Assembly: GCA_965223505.1 (NCBI GenBank)
Contig: CBDCWP010000012.1
Location: forward strand, 32,001 to 96,000
Direction of reading: 5' to 3'
Origin: Planctomycetota bacterium
GTDB lineage: Bacteria > Planctomycetota > PLA2 > JAEUHO01
DNA: 64,000 bases
Notes under the pieces: model-generated
Told to the model about the DNA's origin: nothing
Seen by the model: the letters and a program-made list of their open reading frames with translations, nothing else
Database searches by the model: none
Position numbers and translations under genes: made by a program
Shown here: piece after piece, positions 8,844 to 56,563 of the stretch
Numbering within the stretch: the stretch's first letter is position 1
How the letters are laid out: each line of letters begins with the position of its first letter

Positions 8844-9119
8844 ATGGCGGCACGGGACGACATTCGACCGGAGCGGCCGGAGCGGCCGACCTACGCCGAC
8901 GAGGTGCGCGCCCAGCTGCGCGTGCGCTGCGTGTACCTGATGACCAAGGAAGCGGCCGTCGGCATTCCGTCGGATCACGAGCAGGCGTTCGAGGCCGACG
9001 GGCCGATCTGGTGGTGCGAGCGCACGTACGAAGCCATGGGCCCCGACGGTTGCGCGGCCGACGAGACGTGCCACGCGCCGTGCGACCGGACCTGCTTCGA
9101 GCCCCCGGTGCGGCCGTAG
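8844..9119 (+). CDS. Small Cys-rich hypothetical protein (91 aa)
   Basis: GGGAGG RBS then ATG 2 nt after the FAD-subunit stop; six Cys (RCVYL, WCERT, GPDGC, TC, PC, TCF). Confidence 0.7.
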   Translation: MAARDDIRPERPERPTYADEVRAQLRVRCVYLMTKEAAVGIPSDHEQAFEADGPIWWCERTYEAMGPDGCAADETCHAPCDRTCFEPPVRP

Positions 9120-9123
9120 TTCC

Positions 9124-10509
9124 TTGCAGCGTTCGCACTGGCTCTTGCTGGGTCTGCTCGCGGCGGCCGCCGTCGGGATTCCTCTTGCGCTGACGTCGGG
9201 GCTCTTCGACGAGGACCCGTTCGACGGCGGCGTGCCGGACGACCCCGAGACGTCGGCCGGCCTCATCGGTCGCGGCGCTCCGGGGCAGCTCCCGCAGGAG
9301 CTCCGGGGGCTGGGGATCCCCGACGAGCTCGACGTCGGCGACCGCAACGCCGTTCTCGAGCTGGTGTTGGAGAGCCTCGAGCAGGATCCGGTCAACTGGG
9401 CGCGCGTGGCGCAGCTGGTGGGGCAGCTCGAGCCCCCGATCGAAGATCCACTGCGCGGCCGGTTGCTGGCCGAGGTCCGCGCGGGCAACCCGTCCGTGCG
9501 GCGGGTCTTCGAGCTGGTCCGTGACCCGACGTTCGCAGACGACCTGCTCGCGATGCTCAAGGGGCGCGACTTCGAGCCGGGGGCGCGAGAGGTGTTGCTG
9601 CAAGCGCTTGCGCGCCTGCCCGGCGCCGACGCGGACGCCATCGTCTCGGCCCTCGAGGTCTTTCTCGTCGGCGACACGACCCAGGATCAGGACGTGCTGC
9701 GCGCCATCGTCAAGCGCGGCAGCCCCGCGTCGGCCCGCGCGATTCTCGCGTACACGTTGCGCAGCCTGAACCCGATGCCGTTGCGCGTGGTGCTGGGCCA
9801 AGCCGTGAAGCACGCCGACGCCGAGGGGCGCGCCGAGATTCGCGCGGCGCTGGGCCAACCGCACGAGCGGCACGTCATGGTCACGCTCATCGACTGCATC
9901 GGCGCGCTGGGCGAGGACGATCTCGTGCGGCCGTTGCTTGCCCTCGATCGCGAGGGCAGCCATCCACGCGTTCGACGCGCCGTCTACGGCGCGTTGAGCC
10001 GCATCGGGACCGACGGCGCGGTCGAGCGCCTCATCGAGGCCGGCGCCGCGCAGGACGACCGCGGCGGGGACGCGCGCCGCGCGCTGGAGCGCATGTCCGC
10101 CGCCGACGACGCGGCGCGCAAACGCATGATGGACGCCTACGAGGAGATCGACGACCCCGTTCGACGCATCGGCATCCTGCGCGCGCTGACCGAGATGGAG
10201 CACGAGCCGGTCATCCCGCTGCTCGCCGAAGCGCTCGACAGCGAGGACCCCCGGCTTCGGCGTGCCGGCGTCCACGGGCTGCGCACCTTCGGCGAGCGGG
10301 CGCGGCCGCATGTTGGCAAGATGTTCGCCCTTTGGGGGGCCGCGGACAAGGGCACGCGCGCGGCCATCGTCGGCACGCTGGCGTCGGCGGGCGGCAGCGA
10401 GGCCCGCCGCGCACTGGCGTCGCTCCAGGATGCGCCCGAGCTCACCGATCGGATTCGGTCGCTCGTCGCGCAGGCACTGCGGTCGTTCGACGATGACAGC
10501 GGCAATTAG
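9124..10509 (+). CDS. HEAT-repeat protein with N-terminal membrane anchor or signal
   Basis: Hydrophobic N-terminus; helical repeats such as 'VRRAVYGALSRIG' and 'LDSEDPRLRRAGVHGL'. Confidence 0.75.
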   Translation: MQRSHWLLLGLLAAAAVGIPLALTSGLFDEDPFDGGVPDDPETSAGLIGRGAPGQLPQELRGLGIPDELDVGDRNAVLELVLESLEQDPVNWARVAQLVGQLEPPIEDPLRGRLLAEVRAGNPSVRRVFELVRDPTFADDLLAMLKGRDFEPGAREVLLQALARLPGADADAIVSALEVFLVGDTTQDQDVLRAIVKRGSPASARAILAYTLRSLNPMPLRVVLGQAVKHADAEGRAEIRAALGQPHERHVMVTLIDCIGALGEDDLVRPLLALDREGSHPRVRRAVYGALSRIGTDGAVERLIEAGAAQDDRGGDARRALERMSAADDAARKRMMDAYEEIDDPVRRIGILRALTEMEHEPVIPLLAEALDSEDPRLRRAGVHGLRTFGERARPHVGKMFALWGAADKGTRAAIVGTLASAGGSEARRALASLQDAPELTDRIRSLVAQALRSFDDDSGN

Positions 10510-10536
10510 TACCGCCTTGCGCAGAAATACGCGGTT

Positions 10537-10551
10537 TGGCTTCGCGCTTGT
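10537..10551 (+). promoter_or_regulatory. Possible sigma54-type promoter (imperfect -12 box) upstream of the paralogue triplet
   Basis: TGGC-TTCGCGC-TTGT has the correct -24/-12 spacing but TTGT instead of TTGC; strong RBS AAAGGAGG at 10623-10630. Confidence 0.3.
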
Positions 10552-10635
10552 GTCACAGGACGCAGCGCCCTAAGGTCTGGCTCCGGCGTGGAGAGGACGG
10601 GCTCTGCGTGTGTGCCCCTTTCAAAGGAGGTGTGT

Positions 10636-12024
10636 GTGAATCGCGTACGCATAACTTGTGTCGCGGGCGCGCTGGCGCTTTGCATTCTGGTGATTCCAGC
10701 AATCACGCAAGCCAGCACCCGGACCGGGGGCGACCTCGGCAGCCGAATCGCCTTGCTCGAGCAGCAGACGGCAACGTTGAACACGTTGTTGGCCAACGTC
10801 ATGCGCTCCGGCAACGACCTGATCATCACGCAAGGGCTGGATGTGGAAGGCGCCGGCAACCTCGGCCCGAACGGACAGCACATCGCCTGCTTCGAGAACA
10901 CGAATGCGGGCGCCGCCGACGGCGTGGCGATCAAGGTCGACGGAGCGCCGCTATCGAGCGACAACAACTTCTTCACCTTCTACAACGACGACGACGTCGT
11001 CTGCGGGCGCATCGAGGGCTTCTCGCTGCTCGAGGGCGACCCGTTCTCGAACTTCCCGTCGGTTCCGAGCATCGGCATCAGCGACTTCTTCTCATTCTGT
11101 CCGAACTTCATCACGATCACCGGCGGATCCCTGCCGAGCATCAGCGGCGGCAGCCTGCCGAGCTTCGACTTCAGCATCTCGGATCCGGGCTTCAGTGGCG
11201 GATCGTGGCCGACGGTCAGCATCGGCAGCTTCCCGTCGATCGACTTCAAGTCGCCGATCCAGATCACCAACCCCCTCGACGCCGCCGGTGACGTCGTCAC
11301 CTGGCTCGCCGACGTGATCTGCTGGGCGTTCGAGAACGACCTACAGTCCCTCATCCAGACGGATCCCTTCGGGCTGGCGCTTGCGCCGCTCATTCTGACG
11401 GAGTCCACGCTCTGCAAGAACGGGACGACCGGCGAAGGCGGCGTCACGTACGGGTCGACCGGCGCCGACTACGCCGAGTGGCTCGAGAAGGCCGATCCGC
11501 GGGAGACCTTCCTTCCGGGCCAGGTCGTCGGCGTGCTCGCCGGGAAGATCAGCAAGAAGACGGACGGCGCGGACCAGATCATGGCCGTCTCGCAGATCCC
11601 CGCGGTCGTCGGCAACATCCCCCAGCCGCACGAGGCCGAGCGCTTCGAGAAGGTCGGCTTCATGGGACAGGTGGCCGTGCTGGTCCGCGGGAAGGTGACG
11701 GCCGGCGACTACATCATCCCGTCGGGACGCAACGACGGCATCGGCATCGCCCTGCCGGCAAAGGAGCTGCGCGCCAAGCATCTGACGCAGATTCTCGGGC
11801 GCGCCTGGTCCGACAGCACGTCGGAGAGTATTTCCTCCGTCACGGTCGCCATCGGCGTGAAGACGAACGCCGGCGTGGAGATCTGCGCGCGGCAGCAAGA
11901 GCGCATCGACCGGCTGCGTGAGGCCATCGAGGCTTTGCAAGCGCCGTCCCAGGCGCCCGCCGCTCCCGAGGAGAACGCCGCCCATCTCAGTGCGGGTGCT
12001 CGCAAGGAAGGGGGTGCGCGATGA
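10636..12024 (+). CDS. Secreted protein, paralogue 1, with C-terminal Peptidase_G2-like autocleaving chaperone domain
   Basis: AAAGGAGG then GTG at 10636; signal peptide ending TQA; short coiled coil; GADYAEWLEK and KVGFMGQV..GDYII motifs; terminal coiled coil. Confidence 0.8.
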   Translation: MNRVRITCVAGALALCILVIPAITQASTRTGGDLGSRIALLEQQTATLNTLLANVMRSGNDLIITQGLDVEGAGNLGPNGQHIACFENTNAGAADGVAIKVDGAPLSSDNNFFTFYNDDDVVCGRIEGFSLLEGDPFSNFPSVPSIGISDFFSFCPNFITITGGSLPSISGGSLPSFDFSISDPGFSGGSWPTVSIGSFPSIDFKSPIQITNPLDAAGDVVTWLADVICWAFENDLQSLIQTDPFGLALAPLILTESTLCKNGTTGEGGVTYGSTGADYAEWLEKADPRETFLPGQVVGVLAGKISKKTDGADQIMAVSQIPAVVGNIPQPHEAERFEKVGFMGQVAVLVRGKVTAGDYIIPSGRNDGIGIALPAKELRAKHLTQILGRAWSDSTSESISSVTVAIGVKTNAGVEICARQQERIDRLREAIEALQAPSQAPAAPEENAAHLSAGARKEGGAR

Positions 12025-13379
12025 AGGCCTCCAAGCTCCTGATCGCCGTCGCCTGCATCGCGCTCGTCGTGGCGGCGGTGCCCAAGAACTCGGATGCGCG
12101 CACGCGCACGGGGTCGGACCTGGGCTCTCGCGTCGCGGCGCTCGAGGCGACCATCGGCGCGCTCAACACGCTGCTCGAGAACGTCTCGCGGTCGGGCAAC
12201 GACCTGATCATCAACAGCGGTCTAACCGTCGAGGGCCCGGGCGACCTCGGTCCGACCGGTTCTCACATCGTTCGCTTCCGCAACACGGACGGCGGCGGCG
12301 AGGACGGCATCGCCGTCAAGATCAACCGTGCGCCGTGCAACTCGGGCAACAACTTCTGTACCTTCTACAACGACGACGACTACGTCTGCGGCCGCGTAGA
12401 GGGCTTCGCGCTGCTCGAGGGCGACCCCGCGACGAGCTTCCCGTCGGTGCCCAGCATCGGTCTCGACGACTTCTTCGTCTTCTGCCCGAATTTCATCAGC
12501 GTCACCGGCGGCAGGCTGCCCGGCCTGAGCGGTGGCCGGCTGCCGAGCTTCTCCTGTGACATCAGCATCGACCCGCCTTCGATCTCGTGCGACGTCGACT
12601 TCGGCGCGCTGCCGACGCTGGACCCGGGTGCGTTCCCGTCCATCGACTTCAAGGCGCCGCTCTCCATCACGAACCCGCTGGACGCCGGCGGCGACATCAT
12701 TCAGTGGCTTGCCGACGTGATTTGCTGGTGCTTCGAGAACGACCTCGAGTCGCTCATCCAGACCGATCCGTTCGGGCTGGCGCTTGCGCCGTTGATCTTG
12801 GCGGAGTCCACACTCTGCAAGAACGGCACGACCGGGGAAGGCGGCGTGACGTACGGTTCGACCGGCGCCGACTACGCCGAGTGGCTCGAGAAGCAGAACC
12901 CGTCCGACCGGTTCGTACCGGGGCAGGTCGTCGGTGTGCACCGCGGCAAGATCAGCAAGAAGACCGACGGCGCCGAGAAGGTCATGCCGATCTCGCTTGC
13001 GCCGATCGTCGTTGGCAACATGCCGCCCAAGGAGCGCGAGTCGGCTTATGCGAAGGTCGGCTTCATGGGGCAGGTGCCCGTCTACGTGCGCGGCAAGGTC
13101 CGCAAGGGCGACTACGTTGTCGCTTCGGGCAAGAACGACGGCATCGCCATCGGTGTGTCGCCCGAGGCGCTCGAGCTCGTCCACGTATCGCAGATCATCG
13201 GTCGCGCCTGGTCCGCGTCCGACGTCGACGGCGTCTCGGCCGTCAACGTCGCGATCGGGTTGAAGACCAGCGCGTGCGTCGACATCTGCAAACGACAGGA
13301 AGCCGAGATCGACGAGCTGGAGGAGGCGCTCGATGCGCTGCTTGATGCGCGCCATGGCGCGAAGGGAGGTGCGCGATGA
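12021..13379 (+). CDS. Secreted protein, paralogue 2, same architecture
   Basis: ATGA overlap; signal peptide ending SDA; collinear with paralogue 1 including GGVTYGSTGADYAEWLEK. Confidence 0.8.
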   Translation: MKASKLLIAVACIALVVAAVPKNSDARTRTGSDLGSRVAALEATIGALNTLLENVSRSGNDLIINSGLTVEGPGDLGPTGSHIVRFRNTDGGGEDGIAVKINRAPCNSGNNFCTFYNDDDYVCGRVEGFALLEGDPATSFPSVPSIGLDDFFVFCPNFISVTGGRLPGLSGGRLPSFSCDISIDPPSISCDVDFGALPTLDPGAFPSIDFKAPLSITNPLDAGGDIIQWLADVICWCFENDLESLIQTDPFGLALAPLILAESTLCKNGTTGEGGVTYGSTGADYAEWLEKQNPSDRFVPGQVVGVHRGKISKKTDGAEKVMPISLAPIVVGNMPPKERESAYAKVGFMGQVPVYVRGKVRKGDYVVASGKNDGIAIGVSPEALELVHVSQIIGRAWSASDVDGVSAVNVAIGLKTSACVDICKRQEAEIDELEEALDALLDARHGAKGGAR

Positions 13380-14650
13380 AGCTCCGCGTCAAGATCGGGA
13401 TCGGCATCTTCGCGCTGGCACTTCTGGTGCTGGCCATGCCGTCGACGTCGCACGCCCGCACCCGTACCGGCACCGATCTCGGCACCCGCGTGGCGCGGCT
13501 CGAGGAACAGACGGCGCGGATCAACGCGCTGTTGGAGAACCTCTCCATCCAGGGCAACAACCTGCGCTTGGCCAGCGGCCTCAACGTCAACGGCGCCGGC
13601 GCGGTCGGGCCGAACTCGGCGCACATCGTGTGCTTCGAGAACACCGACGGCGGCAGCGAGGACGGCGTGGCGATCAAGATCGATCGCGCTCCGTGCAGCT
13701 CCGACAACAACTTCCTGACCTTCTACAACGACGACGACTACGTCTGTGGCCGCGTCGAGGGCTTCTCGCTGCTCGACGGCGATCCGGCGTCGACGTTCCC
13801 GTCGTTGCCGAGCATTGGTCTGGACGACTTCTTTTCGTTCTGCCCGAACTTCATCTCGATCACCGGGGGCCAGCTCCCGAGCTTCGATCCGGGGAGCTTC
13901 CCCTCGTCGCTGCCGAGCCTCGATCCAGGAGCATTCCCGTCGATCGACTTCAAGTCGCCGCTCACGATCACGAACCCCTTGGATGCGGGCGGGGACATCG
14001 TGAGCTGGCTTGCGGACGTGATCTGCTGGGCGTTCGAGAACGACTTCCAGTCGGTTATTCAGGGCGACCCGTTCGGGATCGCGCTCGCCGCTCTGATCCT
14101 CGTCGAGGCGACGCTCTGTAAGAACGGCCCGTTCGGCGGCGTCACCTACGGATCGACGGGCGCCGACTACGCCGAGTGGTTGGAGAAGCTCCATCCGTCC
14201 GAGCGGTTCCTGCCCGGGCAGATCGTCGGCGTGCACGGCGGCAAGATCAGCAAGAAGACCGAAGGCGCGGAGCAGGTCATGGCGATCTCGCTGGCGCCCG
14301 CGGTCATCGGGAACGTTCCGGCGAAGCAGGACGAGGCGCTCTACGAGCGCGTGGGCTTCATGGGGCAGGTCCCGGTGTACGTCCAAGGCAAGGTCAAGGC
14401 GGGTGACTACATCATTCCGTCCGGCCGCGGCGACGGCATCGGTGTCGCGGTCTCGCCCGATGAGCTCGACCTGAAGGACGTGGCGCACATCCTGGGCCGT
14501 GCGTGGTCCGAGAGCAGCAGCGACGGCGTCGCCTCGGTCAACGTCGGCATCGGGCTCGACACGAACGAGCTGACCGGCGTGTTCGAGAAGAACGCCGATC
14601 GACTGGATCGACTCGAGGAGAAGCTCCAGCTTCTTCGCGAGCGGAAGTAA
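13376..14650 (+). CDS. Secreted protein, paralogue 3, same architecture
   Basis: ATGA overlap; signal peptide ending SHA; same conserved blocks. Confidence 0.8.
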   Translation: MKLRVKIGIGIFALALLVLAMPSTSHARTRTGTDLGTRVARLEEQTARINALLENLSIQGNNLRLASGLNVNGAGAVGPNSAHIVCFENTDGGSEDGVAIKIDRAPCSSDNNFLTFYNDDDYVCGRVEGFSLLDGDPASTFPSLPSIGLDDFFSFCPNFISITGGQLPSFDPGSFPSSLPSLDPGAFPSIDFKSPLTITNPLDAGGDIVSWLADVICWAFENDFQSVIQGDPFGIALAALILVEATLCKNGPFGGVTYGSTGADYAEWLEKLHPSERFLPGQIVGVHGGKISKKTEGAEQVMAISLAPAVIGNVPAKQDEALYERVGFMGQVPVYVQGKVKAGDYIIPSGRGDGIGVAVSPDELDLKDVAHILGRAWSESSSDGVASVNVGIGLDTNELTGVFEKNADRLDRLEEKLQLLRERK

Positions 14651-14766
14651 ACGTGGGGGCGGCGTGGGCCGCTCGCACGAGCTGAAGGCCGATTGCGGCT
14701 CGCCGACCAACGGCGGGCCGCTTTCGTGTCCAAACAGTGCGAGCGTGCTACGGGAGCGAGACAAGC

Positions 14767-16932
14767 ATGGACGTCGAGTCGTCTGAGACCTCGAAGGAGC
14801 AAGCGCCGTCCACCGACGCGCTGTTCACTCCGATCGATGCCGCGAGCCTCGGTTTCTTCCGCTTCGGCTTCGGCGTCATCATGCTCGTGGAGATGCTCCA
14901 CTACATCCTCGACGGATTGGTGCAGAGCCTGTACGTCGACGCGACGTTTCACTTCAAGTTCTACGGGTTCGGCTGGGTCGAGGCGCTGCCCGAGGCCGGG
15001 ATGTTCGCCCTGTTCTGGTCGCTGGTGGTTCTGGCGCTTCTGATCGCGGTCGGCCTCTTCTACCGCGTATCGATCTTCCTGTTCGGCCTCGGATTCACAT
15101 ACGTCTTCCTCTTGGACAAGACGTACTACCTCAACCACTTCTATCTCATCAGCCTGCTCTGCCTGATCCTCGTGTTCGTCCCCGCCGACCGGGCGTTTTC
15201 GCTCCGGCGGCTGCGCAAGCCCGATACGCCGCGCACGCTGCCGGTCTGGTGCCTCTGGTTGCTGCGATTCCAGCTCGGGCTGGTGTACTTCCTCGCGGGT
15301 GCCGCGAAGCTCAACGCCGACTGGTTGCGTGGCGAGCCGATGCGCTCGATGGCGTACGCCGGCGAGTCGATCCTCTCGCCGGGCTTTCCCGCTTGGGCGC
15401 AGAACGACGTCGTCGTGTACATCGGCGCGTACGGCGGACTGCTGTTCGACCTGTTCGTCACGCCGTTCCTCCTGTGGCGCAAGACACGGATGATCGCCTT
15501 CTTGTTCGCTTGTGCGTTCCACTTGGGCAACTTCTTCGTCTTCCGCCTGCCGATCGGCATCTTCCCCTGGTACATGATCGTGGCGACGACGCTGTTCTTC
15601 GACCCGGACTGGCCACGCCAGGTAATCGGGTGGTGGCGCCGCCGGCGAGGCCTGACGGGGCCGGAACCCGTCGTCACCGATCCGACGCCCGTCGTCCCCT
15701 CGCCGCTTCGACGCAAGCTCATCCTCGGTCTCGGCGGTCTTTACATCGTCGTTCAGATCCTGCTCCCGCTGCGGCACAACCTGTATCCCGGCAATCCCTC
15801 CTGGACCAACGAGGGCAACGACTTCGCATGGCGCATGATGATCTTCGCGAAGGACCCCGAGGCGCGCTTCTATGCGACCGACCCCGACACAGGAAAGGTC
15901 TGGCAGATCGACGCCGAGGAGTACCTGACGCCGTATCAGGCACTGATCATGCCGCTGCGACCGGACATGATCCTGCAGTTCTGCCACCACGCGGCGAACG
16001 ATCTACGGGCCAAGGGACATGAACGCGTCGAGATTCGCGGCTACGTGAAGGCGACATTGAACGGCCGGCGGCCGCAGCTGCTCATCAACCCCTTCGTCGA
16101 TCTTGCGGCGGAGCCGCGATCGCTTGCGCACAAGCCGTGGATTCAGCCGTTGACCGTTCCGTTCGAGGAACGGCAGTTCGTGAGCCCCGATCCGAAGATG
16201 CGTTCGGGGTGGGCCGCATTCGAGCCCGGTGCCTGGATCCTGGCAGACGAGCGTCTGTCGCTGGCCGGCAAGACCGCCAGCTTCCGGCGCTTGCGCACCC
16301 TCCAGCTTCGTGACCAAAAGCGCTACATCCGTACCGAGAACATCTCGAAGATCCCGCTCGACGCCGGCGGCGACATCGTTCTTCCTGTCACGCCGGGTGC
16401 GTTGCCGGAGGATCTCGACATGCGCGTCCAGACCGTGGACCACGAGACGCTCGAGATCGACGGCGTCAAGGTCGCGTGCAAGGTGACCGCGTACACGATG
16501 TCGAACAGCGACGACCCCTGGCAGGCGCGATTGGTCCTGTGGACGACGGACACGTTTCGGGTCCCCTATCGCGAGGTGCCGGACGTTCAGCCGAGGCTGT
16601 TGAGGCGCATGGCCATGATGCCGAACGTCGTGAAGTTGAAGTACGTCGTGATGGACCAGATGAGCCGCCGCGAGGGCATCTACGAGGTTCAGGTCGAGGC
16701 GTTGCAGGAGTCGTTTTCGCTCGGCGAACGCACGCTCGAATGCGTACGCGAGTCGGCACGCATCGCGCGACGCGGCCAGGGCGGCGAGGTCCTGGCGAAG
16801 ATGGAGCGCTGGCTGTCGACCGAGGTTCCCAACCACATCGTCAAGGCGACCGTGAACACGGCGCAGCCCAAGCGCACCACCGAGTGGGGCTTCTCGATCG
16901 TGAAGTTCAGCGGCCGCGCACAGAACCCCTGA
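14767..16932 (+). CDS. HTTM-domain protein, vitamin-K-dependent gamma-carboxylase homologue, with C-terminal extension
   Basis: Motifs PIDAASLGFFRFGFG, FHFKFYGF, YLNHFYL, AGAAKLNADW, IGIFPW, WTNEG..FAWRMM, PDMILQF and LNGR; multiple TM segments. Confidence 0.9.
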   Translation: MDVESSETSKEQAPSTDALFTPIDAASLGFFRFGFGVIMLVEMLHYILDGLVQSLYVDATFHFKFYGFGWVEALPEAGMFALFWSLVVLALLIAVGLFYRVSIFLFGLGFTYVFLLDKTYYLNHFYLISLLCLILVFVPADRAFSLRRLRKPDTPRTLPVWCLWLLRFQLGLVYFLAGAAKLNADWLRGEPMRSMAYAGESILSPGFPAWAQNDVVVYIGAYGGLLFDLFVTPFLLWRKTRMIAFLFACAFHLGNFFVFRLPIGIFPWYMIVATTLFFDPDWPRQVIGWWRRRRGLTGPEPVVTDPTPVVPSPLRRKLILGLGGLYIVVQILLPLRHNLYPGNPSWTNEGNDFAWRMMIFAKDPEARFYATDPDTGKVWQIDAEEYLTPYQALIMPLRPDMILQFCHHAANDLRAKGHERVEIRGYVKATLNGRRPQLLINPFVDLAAEPRSLAHKPWIQPLTVPFEERQFVSPDPKMRSGWAAFEPGAWILADERLSLAGKTASFRRLRTLQLRDQKRYIRTENISKIPLDAGGDIVLPVTPGALPEDLDMRVQTVDHETLEIDGVKVACKVTAYTMSNSDDPWQARLVLWTTDTFRVPYREVPDVQPRLLRRMAMMPNVVKLKYVVMDQMSRREGIYEVQVEALQESFSLGERTLECVRESARIARRGQGGEVLAKMERWLSTEVPNHIVKATVNTAQPKRTTEWGFSIVKFSGRAQNP

Positions 16933-16957
16933 TCCGATCGTGTACGGTACGCCCGTC

Positions 16958-17914
16958 ATGAAGCGTGCCACCGTCCTCATCCTCGGTCTGCTCACCGCGT
17001 GCGGCGAGGAGCCCGCTCCCAAGCCGTTGCCGGACGACCCCTATGTGCTCGTGCTCGGCACCGCGCAGGACGGCGGCTTCCCCCAGATCGGCGCGGACCA
17101 CGCACTCGCGCGCGCCGCGCGCAGAGACACGACGCTTCGACGGTTCGTCGCATCGCTGCTGATCGTCGATCCGCGCAGCGGCAAGCGTTGGTTGATCGAC
17201 GCGACGCCGGACCTGCGCGAACAGGTCGAGCTGGCGCGCGGTCATCCGCCGAACCGCAAGCTGCCCGGCCCCCGGCCGCCCTTGTTCGAGGGCATCTTCC
17301 TCACGCACGCGCACATGGGGCACTACACGGGCTTGATCCACCTGGGCCGCGAGGCGTACGGGGCGAAGGACATGCCGGTGATCGCGTCCGACGAGATGGC
17401 GACCTTCCTCGAGAACAACGGTCCCTGGAGCCTTCTGGTCGAGCTGAAGAACATCCAGCTGCGCACGCTTCGCGCCGGCGAGGCGGTGCCGCTGGCCGAC
17501 GACCTGAGCGTGTTGGCGATCGAGGTGCCGCATCGTTCGGAGTACACGGGCACGTTCGGGTTCGTGATCAAGGGACCGTCGAAGTCGTTGCTCTACATTC
17601 CGGACATCGACAAGTGGGAGAAGTGGACGCGCGAGATCGAGGACGAGATCGCCGCCGTCGACTACGCGCTACTGGACGGGACGTTCTTCGAGAACGGAGA
17701 GATCCCCGGGCGCGACATGTCGTTGATTCCGCATCCGTTCATCGAAGAGTCGTTGCGGCGGTTCGCGCCGCTGCCGGCGACGGAGCGGTCGAAGGTGTTC
17801 TTCACGCACCTGAACCACACGAACCCCGCGTCGGATCCGAACGGCGCTGCGCAGCGCAAGGTGAAGGCCGCGGGGTGCGCCGTGGCGGCCGACGGGCAGG
17901 TGTTCGGGCTGTGA
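16958..17914 (+). CDS. PqqB-like metallo-beta-lactamase-fold hydrolase, lipoprotein
   Basis: Lipobox LLTA-C; motifs VLGTAQDGGFPQ, IDATPD, THAHMGH, VPHR, LDGTF and HLNHTNP. Confidence 0.85.
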   Translation: MKRATVLILGLLTACGEEPAPKPLPDDPYVLVLGTAQDGGFPQIGADHALARAARRDTTLRRFVASLLIVDPRSGKRWLIDATPDLREQVELARGHPPNRKLPGPRPPLFEGIFLTHAHMGHYTGLIHLGREAYGAKDMPVIASDEMATFLENNGPWSLLVELKNIQLRTLRAGEAVPLADDLSVLAIEVPHRSEYTGTFGFVIKGPSKSLLYIPDIDKWEKWTREIEDEIAAVDYALLDGTFFENGEIPGRDMSLIPHPFIEESLRRFAPLPATERSKVFFTHLNHTNPASDPNGAAQRKVKAAGCAVAADGQVFGL

Positions 17915-17932
17915 CGCCGGCGGGTCCGGGGC

Positions 17933-18445
17933 CTATCGCGCCATGCCGGCCAGCGCCGAAGGCAGATCGTGATGCCGGCGCCACGACGCCAGCTGCCCCA
18001 GGTGCATGTTCGCGTGGGCCACCAGCAGGAAGACGAGGTAGTCCGCCATCGTCGGCAGCGCGCCGTCGAAGCGCCATTCGACCGGCGCCTCGAGCGCCTC
18101 CGCCGACAAACCGCGAATCGCCTCGGCCAGGCGCGCCTGCTGGCGCTCCATCTCCTTCAGCAGCGCGGCTGCCGTCGGGTACTTGGCGGGGTCCGGATCG
18201 GGCACGCGTGGATCGCCGGGACCGTTGCGCTCGAAGAGGTCGCGCCAGCCGTCGGGCAGGTCGCGTTCGAGGCCCAGCTCGGCGGCGACGAACCCGAGGC
18301 CCGTGACGATGTGGCCGAGCGTCCAGGCCGGGTGGTTCTCCAACCCCTTCGGGCCGGGCCGGCCCCACAGGGTGTCGGGAACGTCCGCGACCAGCGCGCG
18401 CGCGTACGCGAGGTTCCAGTCCATCTGGTGCAGCACGTGTTCCAT
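17933..18445 (-). CDS. DinB family protein
   Basis: NHPAWTLGHI and HANMHLGQL metal-binding His pattern; start overlaps the desaturase stop. Confidence 0.85.
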   Translation of the reverse strand: MEHVLHQMDWNLAYARALVADVPDTLWGRPGPKGLENHPAWTLGHIVTGLGFVAAELGLERDLPDGWRDLFERNGPGDPRVPDPDPAKYPTAAALLKEMERQQARLAEAIRGLSAEALEAPVEWRFDGALPTMADYLVFLLVAHANMHLGQLASWRRHHDLPSALAGMAR

Positions 18446-19518
18446 CACGCGGGCTTCGTGGCCGCCGCCCGATCCGACTGTCGCAGCCTCGGCAGCGGCA
18501 CCATCCGCTCCTGCTCTTCGTCCCAGAGCGCGAGACGCGCGAAGGGGATGGTCTCCCACAGGGTGTATCCGCGCACGCCCAGCCGGTCGTTCACCTTCCT
18601 GTTGGCGTCACCCAGCCGGTAGCAGGGGATCTTGGCATCGAGGTGATGCACGTGGTGGTAGCCGATGCCGAGCCACAACCACTCGCCGAGCGGACGGCTG
18701 AGGCGCAGGTACGAGCTGCCGTGCACCGCGCCTTCGAAGTAGCTCCAGCCTTCGTCACGCGACGTCTTCCAGACGGCGTCTTCGAAGTGGTGCTGCACGA
18801 AGAAGAGCCAGCCGGCGATGGACGCGGCGAAGATGCAGATGGGGAGCTGTACCTGGGCGAGCGGGCCGATGCCGCCGACGGCGAATCCGGCTGCGACGTG
18901 CATCAAGACGATGACGACGGTGGTCAGATGCACGTCGAGGGTCGACTCGCTCGGCACCTTGCGCCACGCGGCCGGGAGCCGGTGCCCGATGGAAAAGTGG
19001 ACGAACGGCAGCAGCCCGACCATGACGGGCGGCGAGCGGAAGATGCGGTACGCGATGCGCTTCGGCCTCGACCAGCTCTCGAACTCCTTGACGGTGTGGA
19101 GCTTGAGGTAGCCCTCGTCGCTGCGTTCGATGTCGCCGACGGCGGTGTGGTGGGCGATGTGGCTCTTGCGCCAGCGGTCGTAGGGCGTGAAGAGGATCAG
19201 GCCGAAGACGATGCCCCACCAGCGGTTGGCGCGCGGCGTTCGGAAGAGCGCGTGGTGCACGGTGTCGTGGAAGAGCACGAAGATGCGCGACATGATCAGG
19301 CCGCAGGCGAGACCGGTGGCGGCGGCGGCGGGAATGCTGACGGGGATCAGCTTGAAGGTCGCGATCCAGAGCGCGACGTAGAGCGCGACGCTGACGGAGG
19401 CTTCGATCCAGCTGCGGGCCGTGTCGAGCGTGCGGAACCGGCGCAGGTCCTCGAGGACCCCACGAAGCTCGGCCTTGCTCGCCGGCACGGCTGGTTCCTG
19501 TTGCGCTACGGCCTCCAT
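18445..19518 (-). CDS. Membrane fatty acid desaturase
   Basis: His boxes HDTVH, HIAHH, QH and HHVHH; TM segments. Confidence 0.9.
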   Translation of the reverse strand: MEAVAQQEPAVPASKAELRGVLEDLRRFRTLDTARSWIEASVSVALYVALWIATFKLIPVSIPAAAATGLACGLIMSRIFVLFHDTVHHALFRTPRANRWWGIVFGLILFTPYDRWRKSHIAHHTAVGDIERSDEGYLKLHTVKEFESWSRPKRIAYRIFRSPPVMVGLLPFVHFSIGHRLPAAWRKVPSESTLDVHLTTVVIVLMHVAAGFAVGGIGPLAQVQLPICIFAASIAGWLFFVQHHFEDAVWKTSRDEGWSYFEGAVHGSSYLRLSRPLGEWLWLGIGYHHVHHLDAKIPCYRLGDANRKVNDRLGVRGYTLWETIPFARLALWDEEQERMVPLPRLRQSDRAAATKPA

Positions 19519-51456: not shown

Positions 51457-54015
51457 CTACTCGCTCGTCTCGGATTCGGGCGTGTCGCCGGCATCCGCGA
51501 CGGCATCGACCGTCTCGGGCTCTTCCTCGGCCGGCGGCTCGGCCTTCGGCTCGTCCCGAGCGGTCTCGAAGTAGATCCGGCCGTCCTTGAGCATGGCCGT
51601 CACCTTCGTGTTCTCGGGGAAGCTCCCGCGCAACACCTCTTCGGCCAACGGGTCCTCGAGGATCCGCTGAATCGCGCGGCGCAGCGGCCGCGCGCCGAAC
51701 TCGGGGTTGTACCCCTCGTCGATGATGAACTCCTTGGCCTCCGGCGAGAGCGAGAGGTGGACGTTCTTCTGCTCGAGACGCTCGCACAGCCCGACGGTCT
51801 CGATGTCGATGATCTGCGTGAGGTCGTCGCGCGTGAGCTGGCGGAAGACGATGATCTCGTCGACGCGGTTCAGGAACTCCGGACGGAAGTGGCGCTCCAC
51901 CTCCTTCATCAGCTGTTCCTTCATGCGGCCGTGCGTCGCCTCTTCGGTCTCCTTCTGGAAGCCGAGGCCGCCTTGGCTCTTGATCGCGTCCGCGCCGATG
52001 TTGCTCGTCATGATGATGACCGTGTTGCGGAAGTCCACGTGACGGCCGAAGGAGTCGGTCAGGCGACCCTCTTCCATGATCTGCAGCAGCATGTTGAAGG
52101 CATCGTGATGCGCCTTCTCGATTTCGTCGAACAGCACGACGCAGTACGGCCGGCGGCGCACCTGCTCGGTGAGCTGCCCGCCCTCTTCGAAGCCGACGTA
52201 GCCGGGAGGCGCGCCGACCAGCCGGCTCACCGTGTGCTTCTCCATGTACTCGGACATGTCGATCTGGATGAGGGCGTCGGGGTCGCCGAACATGAACTCG
52301 GCGAGCGTCTTGCTCAGGTGGGTCTTACCGACGCCGGTCGGACCCAGGAAGATGAACGAGCCCATCGGCCGGCGCGGGTCCTTGAGCCCCGAGCGGCTGC
52401 GGCGCAGCGCGCGCGCGATGGCCTGGATCGCGTCGTCCTGGCTGACGACCTTCTCGTGCAGCACCTTCTCCATCCGGAGCAGTCGTTCGGCTTCGGCCTT
52501 CTCGAGGCGCGTCAGCGGGATGCCGGTCATCTTGGAGACCGTCTCGCGGATGATCTCCTCGTCGACGACGCCGGTGTTGTTCTGGGTCTTCTCGCGCCAC
52601 TCGCGCAGGAGCTGGTCCTTGGTGCGGCGCACCTTCTGGGCCTGGTCGCGCAGCTGGGCGGCGCGCTCGAAGTCCTGCGCCGCGACCGCCTCGTCCTTCT
52701 CGCGCTCGAGCCGTCCGATCTCGGTCTCGAGGTCCTTGAGATCCGGCGGCTGGGTCATGGACTTGAGCCGCACGCGCGCACCCGCTTCGTCCATGACGTC
52801 GATCGCCTTGTCGGGCAGGTAGCGGCCGTTGATGTAGCGGGTGGACAGCTCGACGGCGCTCTTGAGCGCGTCGTTCGTGTACTTGACGCGGTGATGCGCC
52901 TCGTACTTGTCGCGCAGGCCGATGAGGATCTTGTTTGCCTCGTCCTTGTTCGGCGGGTTGACCATCACCGTCTGGAAGCGGCGCTCCAGCGCGCCGTCCT
53001 TCTCGATGTACTTGCGGTACTCGTCGAGGGTGGTGGCGCCGATGCACTGCACCTCACCGCGCGACAGCGCCGGCTTGAGCACGTTGCTGGCGTCGATGGC
53101 GCCTTCCGCGCCGCCGGCGCCGACGAGCGTGTGCAGCTCGTCGATGAACAGGATGACGTTCTTCGAGCGGCGCACCTCGGTCATGACGGCCTTGATGCGT
53201 TCCTCGAACTGACCGCGGTACTTGGTGCCCGCGACCATCATCGCGAGGTCGAGTACGACCAGGCGGCGGTTGCGCAGGATCTCCGGCACGTCGGAGCCGA
53301 CGATGTTCTGGGCGAGGCCCTCGACGATCGCGGTCTTGCCGACGCCGGCTTCGCCGAGCAGCACGGGGTTGTTCTTGGTGCGCCGGCAGAGGACCTGGAT
53401 GACCCGCTCGATCTCGCGCTTGCGGCCGATGACGGGGTCTAGCTTGTTCTCGCGCGCGTACTCGGTGAGGTCGCGGCCGAACGCGTCCAGAGCGGGGGTC
53501 TTCGACTTGCCGCCGCCGCCGGAGCCGGTGCTCGCGCCGACCTCGGTCGGATCGTCGGAGCCGTCGGGATCGGTCGGCTCGGCGCCGAGTAGCTCGAGGA
53601 CCTCGTCGCGCACGTCTTCCAGCTTCACCTTGAGGTTGCGCAGCACCTGTGCGGCGATGCCTTCGTTCTCACGGATGAGGCCGAGGAGGAGGTGCTCGGT
53701 GCCGATGTACGTGTGACCGAGGTTGCTCGCTTCCTCGAGCGAGAGTTCCAAGACCTTCTTCGCGCGCGGCGTGAAGGGCAGCTGGCCCATCGTGACCATG
53801 CTCGTGCCGTTGCTGACGAGCTTCTCGACCTCTTGACGGATCTTCTTCAGGTCGATGTCGAGATTCTTGAGAACGGATGCCGCGACGCCGGACCCTTCCT
53901 GCACCAGCCCGAGGAGAATGTGCTCGGTGCCGATGTAGTCGTGGTTGAACCGCTGCGCCTCTTGACGTGCGAGGCCCATGACTTTGCGTGCGCGATCGGT
54001 GAATCGGTCGAACAT
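51457..54015 (-). CDS. clpC: ATP-dependent Clp protease ATP-binding subunit ClpC
   Basis: [12 protein letters not shown] start; two Clp-N repeats; [11 protein letters not shown] motif, [15 protein letters not shown]. Confidence 0.97.
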
Positions 54016-54253
54016 GTGATCTCCGCGTCCGATTGTCGCCCCGTTGGCGGGCGTCAACCGATTGTCGCCCCGGGGGGGGCCGGTGACCCGGTTGGAAACG
54101 ACCGTTCGGGAACCAATCCCGAACAGATCGGCCGGGCGGGTCGGAGAGCCGCGTACGACGTGCCGTGATGGCAGCCGTTCACCGCTCTCCGTGCCACCCT
54201 GGCACGGGACGCCGGACTTCCAAGAGCCTTTGTCGGTTGCGTACGTCCTCGAC

Positions 54254-54268
54254 GCAGATTCCGTGCCA
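54254..54268 (-). promoter_or_regulatory. Putative sigma54 (-24/-12) promoter for clpC
   Basis: Minus strand reads TGGCACG-GAAT-CTGC (GG-N10-GC), about 240 bp upstream of the clpC ATG. Confidence 0.55.
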
Positions 54269-54636
54269 GCGTTTCGGCTGCCTTCAGCTTGGCGCAATCT
54301 GACCGCGCGACTCGCAACGGCGTCACAAACGGAGCCGCAAGTCCTTGCGCCAGCGGCGTTTTCGGGCGCGCCTGCACAATGTGCGCACAAACGCGCGGCC
54401 CGCTGCAGTCGACGCGCGCGTTGCGCGCGGCTGTGTCCACTTCGGTCCACGGCGGGAACCAGGCCCGCGGCGTCGCAAGGAGCTCGGTCGGCGCGGGCGC
54501 GAGCCCGTCGAACACGCCCGGCGCCGAGGACGAACCGAGAGCCCTTCTCGGCCGCGCCCCACCCCTGGGGGGATATCGTCTGCGGACCGCGCGCGGTTAC
54601 GCCGAATCGCGTTCGAATCGTGCGTGCCCGCCGGAA

Positions 54637-54700
54637 GACCCTCGTGGTCGCCCAACGAAGGGCGCGCCCGGTCGGGCAGCTACAAGACGAAGTCCCCTAC
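54637..54700. repeat. REP-like doublet (GTAG type), copy 3
   Basis: GACCCTCGTGGTCGCCC is the exact reverse complement of 47751-47767; ends AGTCCCCTAC. Confidence 0.7.
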
Positions 54701-54963
54701 GCCAAGAACCGCGCCTGCGCGATCTCGGCCAGCGTTTCCACGTCACGCTCTTCGCAGATTCGCTCGATCAGGCCGGCATCGAGCCCGTCCTGCCGCTCCA
54801 GCAGCTCGCGCGTTCGCTTCCACAGCTGCGCCGTGCGCTTCGGTGTGGTCGCCAGATAGATCTCCGTCACCAGCTCCGTCAACCGCTGCGCATCGATCGC
54901 GTCGCGATTCCGGTAGTAGTTGCGAATCAGCTTGCGCTGATGGGCCGAGTACTCGCGCGCCAT
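54697..54963 (-). CDS. Small hypothetical protein (88 aa)
   Basis: GAGG RBS; ATG 12 nt after the mcsB stop; helical, charged sequence. Confidence 0.75.
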   Translation of the reverse strand: MAREYSAHQRKLIRNYYRNRDAIDAQRLTELVTEIYLATTPKRTAQLWKRTRELLERQDGLDAGLIERICEERDVETLAEIAQARFLA

Positions 54964-54975
54964 CCGAGAACCTCG

Positions 54976-56022
54976 CTACGTGATGTGCTCGCGCACGAAC
55001 GTCGCCCGGCGCACGTCCCGCTCTTCCGGCTCCAACGCCCGGCCTTCGAGCTGCTGCAGGTGCGCCGGCTGCGTCAGCACGAACAGCTCGTTCACGCGCC
55101 GCAAGTCCACGCCCTGCAGGATGTCGATCACGATGCCCAGCCGCACCGACGACAGGAATTGCATCGCCTCCTCGCTCGTCAGGCAGCGCGCCGAACGCAG
55201 GATCGCCAGCGCGCGATGGCACTTGTCTTCGAGCTTCGTTCGCCCGCGCGTCGACAGCTCGCGGCGGCAGATGTCCTCGTACTCCAAGATCTTCGGGAGC
55301 ATCTGGCGCAACCCGTCGAGGATCTCGTCCTCCGTCTTGCCTAGCGTGATCTGGTTGCTGATCTGATACAGGTCGCCCGACGCCATCGTGCCTTCGCCGT
55401 AGAACCCGCGCACCGTCAGTCCCGTGCGCGACGCCGCCCGGAACACCTTCTCGATCTGCTTCAGGTGCACCAACGCGGGCAGATGCAACATCACGCTCGC
55501 ACGCATGCCCGTGCCGACGTTGGTCGGACACGCCGTCAGGTATCCGTGGCGGTTCGAGGCGGCGAAGTCGAGCTCCTGCTCGAGCTGGCGGTCCACCTCG
55601 ACGGCGACGCGATACGCGTCGCGCAGCGCCAGACTCGAGCGAATCGCCTGAATGCGCAGGTGGTCCTCTTCGTTGACCATCACGCTCACGACCTCGTTCG
55701 AACCAAACGCCACGCCGCGCGCGCCCTTCGAGCTCTCCAGCTCGCGGCTGATCAGGTGCCGCTCGACGAGCATCCGGCTGAAGATGCGGTCCGTGTCGTC
55801 CAGGTCGATGTAGAAGGACTTGCGGTGCAGCTTCAGGCCGGCCAACGGCCCGCGTACACGTTGCACGATCTCGCCCCGCTGTTCGTCCCCCGCCTTCCCG
55901 AGGAACGGAAAGCCGGCGAGGTTGCGCGCCAAGCGCACACGCGACGAGATCACGACGTCCGAGCGCTCGCCGGTGCCGCGCAACCACTCGCCGCCGCGTG
56001 TGTCGAGGTCGTTGAGATCCAT
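54976..56022 (-). CDS. mcsB: Protein arginine kinase
   Basis: SSRVRLARN, NEEDHLR, GYLTACPTNVGTGMRAS, YQISNQ. Confidence 0.95.
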   Translation of the reverse strand: MDLNDLDTRGGEWLRGTGERSDVVISSRVRLARNLAGFPFLGKAGDEQRGEIVQRVRGPLAGLKLHRKSFYIDLDDTDRIFSRMLVERHLISRELESSKGARGVAFGSNEVVSVMVNEEDHLRIQAIRSSLALRDAYRVAVEVDRQLEQELDFAASNRHGYLTACPTNVGTGMRASVMLHLPALVHLKQIEKVFRAASRTGLTVRGFYGEGTMASGDLYQISNQITLGKTEDEILDGLRQMLPKILEYEDICRRELSTRGRTKLEDKCHRALAILRSARCLTSEEAMQFLSSVRLGIVIDILQGVDLRRVNELFVLTQPAHLQQLEGRALEPEERDVRRATFVREHIT

Positions 56023-56038
56023 CGTCGGTCAGGCGTCC

Positions 56039-56563
56039 TCAGTGCGCCGAAGGATCGGGCCACGACCGCTGCTCCGTCGCCGCCTTCTCGATGCCTTGAA
56101 TCTCGTCCCGCAGTCGCGCCGCGTCTTCGTACTTCTCGTCCTTCACGGCGTCGCGCAGCTCGCGTCGCAGCTGCAACAACCGGTCGCCGACCGTCGTCTC
56201 GACCTCGTGTTGGCCGCGGGGCAGCCGGCCCTTGTGACGGCTCGCGCCCGCATGCATCTTCGCGAGCAAGCGAGTCAGCGCCTCGTCGAACACTTCGTAG
56301 TCCTTCGGACAGCCGAAGCGGCCCTTCGCGCGGAACTCTTCGAACGTCATGCCGCAGTGCGGACACGCGCGATCGGGCGCGGTGACGCTGCGGCTGATCG
56401 TGTCGACCATGCTCGCAACGAACGCCTCGTTGTTCAGTCCCTGCGCCGCCGCGCAAGACTCGCAGATGTGCAACTCTTCCTTTTCGTCGTTCTGAATCTC
56501 GGTGAAGTGAATCGTGGCCGGATTCAGATGGCAGGTCTGGCAGAGGTGCGTCGACACGTGCAC
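56039..56563 (-). CDS. mcsA: McsA (CxxC zinc motifs plus UVR domain)
   Basis: CQTC, CESC, CPHC, GCPKDY; C-terminal EKYEDAARLRDEI. Confidence 0.92.
   Translation of the reverse strand: MHVSTHLCQTCHLNPATIHFTEIQNDEKEELHICESCAAAQGLNNEAFVASMVDTISRSVTAPDRACPHCGMTFEEFRAKGRFGCPKDYEVFDEALTRLLAKMHAGASRHKGRLPRGQHEVETTVGDRLLQLRRELRDAVKDEKYEDAARLRDEIQGIEKAATEQRSWPDPSAH

Follow-up and report, generated by a model that had tools for sequence, protein, structure and literature searches.

A C-terminal chaperone that cleaves itself off is a textbook feature of phage tail spikes, proteins whose folding takes place in the cytoplasm. What such a domain is doing on signal-peptide-bearing proteins encoded among cellular genes is a question posed by three adjacent genes in a 64,000-nucleotide stretch of DNA from a Planctomycetota bacterium (assembly GCA_965223505.1, contig CBDCWP010000012.1, positions 32,001 to 96,000; hereafter the window, whose coordinates are used unless another locus is named), the products of which we call fibres (copies 1 to 3; Table 1). 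Here we computed the homology and fold of their C-terminal domain, the conservation and alignment of a motif within it, a predicted trimer and the pattern of copy numbers in related loci. On balance we think it probable that the fibres are Sec-exported subunits of short, trimeric, fibre-like proteins, homotrimeric and equipped with a phi29-type chaperone that cleaves at GA/DYAEW (a slash marks the predicted cleavage position). A phi29-type chaperone is thus found on cellular proteins with signal peptides, joined to a passenger that gave no known fold. Should cleavage take place after export, the domain would have to operate without cytoplasmic factors; knowing this would help in understanding how fibres assemble and in engineering secreted trimers.

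The chaperone domain and its passenger

The C-terminal 160 or so residues around the DYAE motif had been proposed to resemble the Peptidase_G2 chaperone of phi29 gp12, and Pfam, hhalign, Foldseek and VIA all agree on this. The Pfam profile (PF11962) scored 30.3, 25.3 and 30.5 bits for copies 1 to 3 against a gathering cut-off of 25, with copy 2 only narrowly above it and the best stretch spanning profile positions 37–101 of 228. Alignment of gp12 residues 670–854 with the family alignment in hhalign gave a probability of 94.2% (E 1.1e-7). Copy 3 was modelled with AlphaFold from an alignment of 43 sequences; the model had a predicted local distance difference test (pLDDT) score above 90 over most of residues 262–424 and poorer scores upstream. 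Its best Protein Data Bank (PDB) matches in Foldseek were the gp12 structures 3gqh_A (E 1.6e-4, probability 1.00) and 3suc. In VIA, model residues 254–393 were placed on gp12 682–854 of 3suc (Z 13.3, root-mean-square deviation 3.0, 123 residues aligned) and residues 264–393 on gp12 692–854 of 3gqh_A (Z 12.8, deviation 2.5, 114 aligned); identity over these alignments was 23–24%, and model residue 264 lay opposite gp12 residue 692. The next unrelated VIA entry stood at Z 9.8, and phage head-decoration proteins at Z 7–10.

The motif itself aligns with the gp12 cleavage site. S691/D692-F-A-E695 of gp12 (NC_011048) stands opposite A/D-Y-A-E in all three copies, and D264 and E267 of copy 3 fall opposite D692 and E695 in MAFFT, hhalign and structure alignments alike; we take these two gp12 residues to be catalytic. 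The string GADYAE[WY] was present in 52 of 52 family sequences.

The likeness to gp12 D4 (Peptidase_G2; 3suc, 3gqh) comprises the beta-rich C-terminal domain with the same fold, the cleavage-site motif (S/DFAEYFE in gp12, A/DYAEWLE in the fibres) and predicted trimer contacts at that motif. In contrast to gp12, the fibres bear signal peptides, sit among cellular genes and have a passenger that is not a pectate-lyase-type beta helix. Two papers describe gp12 D4 as an auto-chaperone that is removed. A gp12-like D4 is also found in Dpo31, the tail spike of the marine podovirus Carin-1 (28nb; Acta Cryst D 2026), and this domain trimerizes alone, begins at Asp664 and is absent once the protein is mature (PMC13317679). 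Dpo31, however, is a cytoplasmically made phage depolymerase, and its sequence match to the fibres is not significant: 28nb was the single chaperone-type entry (E 0.11) in a PDB profile search with the family alignment, which otherwise returned coiled-coil noise and did not list gp12 at E up to 1. The endosialidase-type chaperones (Peptidase_S74; phage K1F, T5 pb1, MyRF) are alike in using a C-terminal domain to drive trimer folding, after which the domain cleaves itself off; folding of the T5 pb1 chaperone also begins from a short triple coiled coil. They differ in having another fold and a Ser/Lys mechanism, and as an alternative assignment this family (PF13884) found no Pfam match at E up to 1 in any of the three proteins.

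The open reading frames and their junctions agree with the original prediction of a collinear trio with identical stop/start overlaps. Both junctions are ATGA overlaps within GGTGCGCGATGA (at 12013 and 13368), a string occurring twice against 0.06 expected, with two or more occurrences in none of 100 shuffles. The most likely start codon of copy 1 is the GTG at 10636, which follows AAAGGAGG (10623–10630) by six bases; an alternative GTG start lies at 10588 in the same open frame. The G+C content at third codon positions (GC3) is 0.88–0.91, normal for real genes of this 69% GC genome. Protein identity among the copies is 62–64% (pairwise alignment and homologue search). At the DNA level they are 63–83% identical (300-nucleotide blocks), and they are therefore diverged genes, with no assembly duplication; the same figures indicate no recent gene conversion among them. 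No sigma-70-like promoter was detected in 9000–18500.

Several features read from the window at the outset held up on alignment. The block NNF.TFYNDDD.VCGR.EGF, the string GGVTYGSTGADYAEWLEK and the four cysteines of VCG, FCP, ICW and LCK are invariant in all three copies, and the DYAE codons begin at 11467, 12870 and 14165, as had been reported. Two additional cysteines are each found in just two of the three copies, and those of VCG and FCP are restricted to the window copies among the 52 family sequences. Each copy also appears by eye to have a signal peptide, with a basic n-region and a hydrophobic core followed by TQA/S, SDA/R or SHA/R. The terminal coiled coils were partly borne out: the copy 3 model has helices at residues 34–54 and 398–423, which may form coiled coils.

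The passenger consists of a conserved mature N-terminus with a helix, a beta block, pentapeptide-like repeats (SF..G / SLPS.) of variable length and a helical hairpin; PF13599 is precomputed on several relatives. The hairpin cysteines C217 and C248 occur together in 18 of the 52 family sequences, are both missing in 34 and never occur singly, and this co-occurrence suggests a disulfide between them. NCBIfam returned no family for the fibres, for the HTTM protein encoded downstream or for the small N-module proteins described below. PHROGs gave only weak matches, the best being phrog_34132, of unknown function (about 1e-7 to 5e-9), with pre-neck appendage at 0.007–0.15.

Trimer formation, self-cleavage and copy number

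The expectation of a trimer agrees with modelling. A homotrimer of copy 3 (residues 78–400) was predicted with ipSAE values of 0.89, 0.88 and 0.89, the best of three controls reaching 0.00; at least 63% of contacts were common to the runs, and partner pLDDT was at least 66. In calibration, 20 of 30 proteins whose solved structure is a pair of one chain scored at or above the mark applied here, against 1 of 23 whose solved structure is a single chain. Confident contacts fall within residues 78–132 (the beta block) and 253–400 (the chaperone), and two residues of the motif, 265 and 267, are in contact with adjacent chains. Being secreted, trimeric and fibre-like by this reading, the proteins resemble the YadA-type trimeric autotransporter adhesins, and YadA-head-like repeats are found in some family members (PF05658 on P0005). 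They differ in that Pfam lists no YadA_anchor beta-barrel, their C-terminus being the G2 domain plus a helix, and in that trimerization is assigned to the G2 chaperone.

We propose the following scheme, of which export, disulfide bonding, the actual cleavage, anchoring and the biological role are the parts that we infer. After export, the C-terminal helix and the Peptidase_G2-type chaperone would gather three chains, and the chaperone would template the folding of the passenger, i.e. the beta block, the pentapeptide-like repeats and a presumably disulfide-bonded hairpin. The Asp/Glu pair of GA/DYAEW would then cut between Ala and Asp, giving a mature subunit of about 236–257 residues and a chaperone fragment of 161–185 residues. 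Each paralogue would most likely form its own homotrimer, the copies stemming from tandem duplication in this lineage, and the shared mature N-terminus (RTRTGxDLGxRVAALE) would probably be a common docking or anchoring piece.

A number of points weigh against this scheme. The signal peptides were judged by eye, and self-cleavage is predicted from the motif. Compared with gp12, the fibres are missing about 45 internal residues of the domain, add a C-terminal helix of 30–58 residues and have Ala, rather than Ser, before the scissile bond. The passenger is modelled at a pLDDT of only about 70 (70.3 for residues 60–268 of copy 3 folded alone) and has no apparent structural relative, its best Foldseek match in the PDB being at E 1.5 and its best VIA match among 48,161 chains at Z 3.5. 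The trimer score may partly echo the solved gp12 D4 trimer; moreover, the alignment behind it was self-made, and its calibration concerned two copies of a chain, not three. Release of the gp12 chaperone reportedly needs ATP, and since there is none outside the cytoplasm, release from the fibres, if any, must work differently. A 2026 paper does mention a site in D4 that binds ATP. Signals for outer-membrane translocation or for anchoring were not seen in the fibres, which could therefore be periplasmic.

Some of these departures from gp12 would suit a domain that stays in place as a permanent C-terminal knob or trimerization module without self-cleavage, as in an uncleaved capsid decoration protein. 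The fold does match phage head-decoration and cement proteins that are not cleaved, and the Ala before the scissile bond, the helix after the domain and an ATP-dependent release (said to apply to gp12) that would be impossible once the protein is exported are all in keeping with such a knob. However, the gp12 structures stand 3 Z units above the decoration proteins, the Pfam G2 score is over its cut-off, and the motif lies exactly opposite the gp12 cleavage site and presumed catalytic residues; structure alone, furthermore, hardly explains why GADYAE[WY] is kept so strictly across phyla. We regard an uncleaved knob as unlikely, and retain the self-cleaving homotrimer as the preferred reading.

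The composition of that trimer was weighed separately, as three translationally coupled genes had suggested an obligate or preferred 1:1:1 heterotrimer in which coupling supplies equal chains for one mixed fibre. The two identical four-nucleotide stop/start overlaps fit this idea, and mixed assembly looks sterically possible, 66 of 110 interface positions in the chaperone and beta block (60%) being invariant. The hairpin before the cleavage site is the best-conserved segment (72% invariant), and hence the copies have not diversified there. Yet the interface is no better conserved than the remainder (60% versus 57%), no segment is less conserved than the C-terminal helix (14% invariant), and copy 3 by itself yields a confident homotrimer prediction. 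Copy numbers speak against the heterotrimer as well. In 77 related loci, those kept among at least 617 related stretches confirmed in species genomes, 65 contain a single copy, 11 a pair and one a set of four, and a trio occurs in none, short contigs making these counts lower bounds; likewise, sampling 300 genomes of the phylum gave three positives, each with a single copy. In a tree of 43 alignment rows the window copies form one starred clade (100/99), with a single metagenome protein (P0004) as sister, and the triplication is therefore recent, local and lineage-specific. An obligate or preferred heterotrimer thus seems quite improbable to us, and an ancient conserved three-chain complex is not supported; mixed trimers among the paralogues are possible.

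Family, origin and envelope tethering

Searching 1.84 billion proteins with a passenger profile retrieved 649 representatives at E of 0.001 or below, 172 at 1e-10 and 96 at 1e-30, a family of some 100–170 sequence clusters across Bacteroidota, Planctomycetota and other phyla. Most matches are 500–1400 residues long with the conserved core at the C-terminus, the window proteins being minimal versions. The kept loci come mainly from metagenome-assembled genomes (MAGs) of Bacteroidota and Planctomycetota, with some from Gemmatimonadota, Verrucomicrobia, Lentisphaerae, Ignavibacteria and Chlorobiota. The fibres belong, we conclude, to a modest, uncharacterised cellular family, no description of which was found in the literature searched, some of it available in part.

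The original prediction regarded the fibres as a domesticated phage part, and this is only loosely right: the chaperone domain does occur in viral contigs (residues 238–393 matched at four loci in IMG/VR), but there is no whole-protein phage match, tblastn finding no fibre in 50,697 phage records. The accompanying statement that no phage genes lie nearby stood, as none of the 39 window open reading frames scanned with Pfam has a phage structural, lysis or integration family. The three fibre genes are the sole G2 matches in the window's 5.15-Mb genome, and the chaperone domain is absent from 60 relatives of that genome. GC content at 10001–18000, which covers the fibre, HTTM and MBL genes, is 0.644–0.674, compared with 0.70–0.72 in the preceding 10 kb. 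This dip, together with the absence from all 60 relatives and the occurrence in just 3 of 300 genomes of the phylum, suggests horizontal acquisition of the cluster. The same dip and patchy occurrence, and a chaperone best known from phage tail spikes, might also be expected of a prophage or tailocin fibre remnant with no cellular role. We consider this very improbable, however, given that all three genes are intact with normal GC3, that signal peptides are needless for phage fibres made in the cytoplasm, that viral contigs match the chaperone domain alone and phage records not at all, that the window is free of phage families and that the family has conserved cellular neighbours in other phyla.

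For exported cellular fibres of this kind, the mature N-terminus and the neighbouring genes bear on how they might be held at the envelope. The sequence RTRTGxDLGxRVAALE begins the mature part of eight secreted proteins of the genome, i.e. the three fibres and five others of about 150–250 residues, which share the signal peptide and helix and differ in their C-terminal domains. One of the five has YadA-head-like repeats, as judged by eye. The N-module proteins tested have no Pfam or NCBIfam family, and the N-module has no convincing match in the 60 relatives; weak matches in three of these (E 7e-4 to 9e-3) were set aside, as the two inspected share coiled-coil-like sequence only. A coiled-coil lipoprotein of a same-family genome (G026; L106 505–1047, + strand), whose C-terminal part resembles, by eye, a phage tail-collar domain, gave only a weak coiled-coil match to the N-module.

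In other lineages the fibre gene is adjoined by a conserved small gene whose product contains a shared domain of about 50 residues. In Bacteroidota this partner has a type IX secretion system (T9SS) sorting domain and lies upstream of the fibre gene (33 of 78 loci), and in Planctomycetota, where it has a dockerin-like tail, it is encoded downstream (11 of 78). It had no match at E up to 1 in a profile search of the window's genome, which is 92% complete. The shared N-module here and the small sorting or dockerin partners elsewhere suggest that fibres are fixed to the envelope in ways particular to each lineage. A barrel-like protein of 215 residues is an additional fibre neighbour in 17 loci; in Flavobacteriaceae loci this protein and a LuxR-type response regulator are both encoded upstream.

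Table 1. Fibre genes, their predicted domains and related features (window coordinates, or coordinates within the locus named).
Feature	Position	Strand	Remarks
Fibre paralogue 1	10636–12024	+	462 aa; signal peptide residues 1–26; predicted mature part S27–A277; chaperone fragment D278–R462
Fibre paralogue 2	12021–13379	+	452 aa; predicted mature part R27–A283; chaperone fragment D284–R452; ATGA overlap with copy 1
Fibre paralogue 3	13376–14650	+	424 aa; predicted mature part R28–A263; chaperone fragment D264–K424; ATGA overlap with copy 2
Peptidase_G2-type domain, copy 1	11437–11865	+	DYAE 11467–11478; coordinates carried from copy 3 by alignment
Peptidase_G2-type domain, copy 2	12840–13268	+	DYAE 12870–12881
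Peptidase_G2-type domain, copy 3	14135–14563	+	Residues 254–396; DYAE 14165–14176; C-terminal helix follows to 14647
Conserved beta block, copy 3	13607–13771	+	Residues 78–132; predicted second trimer interface
Helical hairpin, copy 3	13991–14131	+	Residues 206–252; bears co-occurring pair C217/C248
Mature N-terminal module, copy 3	13457–13555	+	RTRTGTDLGTRVARLEE... plus helix; also in copies 1 and 2
Terminator-like GC-rich hairpin	14695–14721	+	Separates fibre genes from HTTM gene; 3' neighbour UUUCGUGU
HTTM + VKGC_lumenal protein	14737–16932	+	731 aa; resembles vitamin-K-dependent gamma-carboxylase; 250-aa C-terminal extension
Further N-module protein, same genome	L005 1051–1812	-	
Further N-module protein, same genome	L006 1486–2004	+	
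Further N-module protein, same genome	L007 1162–1665	-	
Further N-module protein, same genome	L008 1489–1959	+	
Further N-module protein, same genome	L114 1521–2087	+	
Conserved neighbours in a relative's locus	L010 8390–8890, 13040–13717		
Conserved neighbour in a relative's locus	L009 4290–4715		
Conserved neighbours in a relative's locus	L017 7247–7729, 7641–8390		

The HTTM gene and other neighbours

The gene beginning 87 nucleotides past copy 3 is the only HTTM gene of the genome, and its product matches human GGCX at E 1e-42 over residues 29–475, with a His opposite H160 and a Lys opposite K218 both kept. We presume H160 to have a role in GGCX; K218 is its catalytic lysine. Homologous to GGCX and to bacterial HTTM proteins, the product differs from them by its extra C-terminal domain and has no recognisable Gla-type substrate. 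The extension has a strong match in just one other genome among 300 of the phylum. In the intergenic region (14651–14736), whose fold has -57.6 kcal/mol and z -4.47, lie two GC-rich hairpins; the terminator-like one of Table 1 is the second.

The pairing of fibre and HTTM genes recurs. In a Planctomycetota MAG (L034) a single fibre gene overlaps the orthologous HTTM gene by four nucleotides, the HTTM protein being 52% identical over 705 residues and its C-terminal extension 38% identical; in a Saprospiraceae MAG (L010) the genome's only HTTM gene lies inside the four-gene fibre cluster. These two cases, the adjacency of the sole HTTM gene to the sole G2 matches of the window's genome and the clear GGCX homology with its retained Lys and His would fit a role of the fibres as substrates or clients of the HTTM enzyme, through Glu/Asp carboxylation or periplasmic maturation, which would be compatible with their being self-cleaving homotrimers. 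Set against this, the pairing is seen in only 2 of the 77 related loci, and fibre genes are missing from all 11 metagenome loci with related HTTM genes, 9 of which include 2 kb or more upstream. The window's own pair is separated by a strong terminator-like hairpin; in two same-family genomes HTTM genes adjoin different secreted proteins; and 1.5 kb beyond the HTTM gene is one for a fatty-acid desaturase (18445–19518, - strand). A Pfam search at E up to 1 finds, moreover, neither a Gla domain nor a propeptide, although bacterial substrates, if there are any, need not look like the animal Gla domain. A client relationship seems doubtful on this evidence, and we treat the HTTM–fibre link, which is possible, as a lead.

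Even so, this link is to our mind the most interesting open question of the locus, as the recurrent pairing gives a candidate client, open to testing, for a class of bacterial enzymes of which few substrates are known. One could go further and imagine that a menaquinone-dependent HTTM enzyme modifies or matures the fibres, and that RTRTGxDLGxRVAALE marks eight interchangeable fibre-like proteins docking on one envelope receptor. We think this combination improbable; if true, the fibres would be the first candidate protein substrates of a bacterial gamma-carboxylase homologue.

The desaturase neighbour offers a lipid-related alternative reading of the HTTM gene. A 2026 preprint describes carboxylase-like epoxidases that adjoin or are fused with desaturases in giant viruses, a link to lipids. 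On the other side of the fibre cluster, a secreted HEAT-repeat protein is encoded upstream; as a conserved partner it was rejected, since the window and L034 versions are not detectably related (E 0.19).

Elsewhere in the window (51460–56563, - strand), a ClpC-like AAA+ protein (Clp_N, UVR, AAA_2), an ATP:guanido phosphotransferase and a UVR-motif protein are encoded in a row, an arrangement that we take to resemble the McsA-McsB-ClpC protein-arginine-kinase system, best known from Firmicutes.

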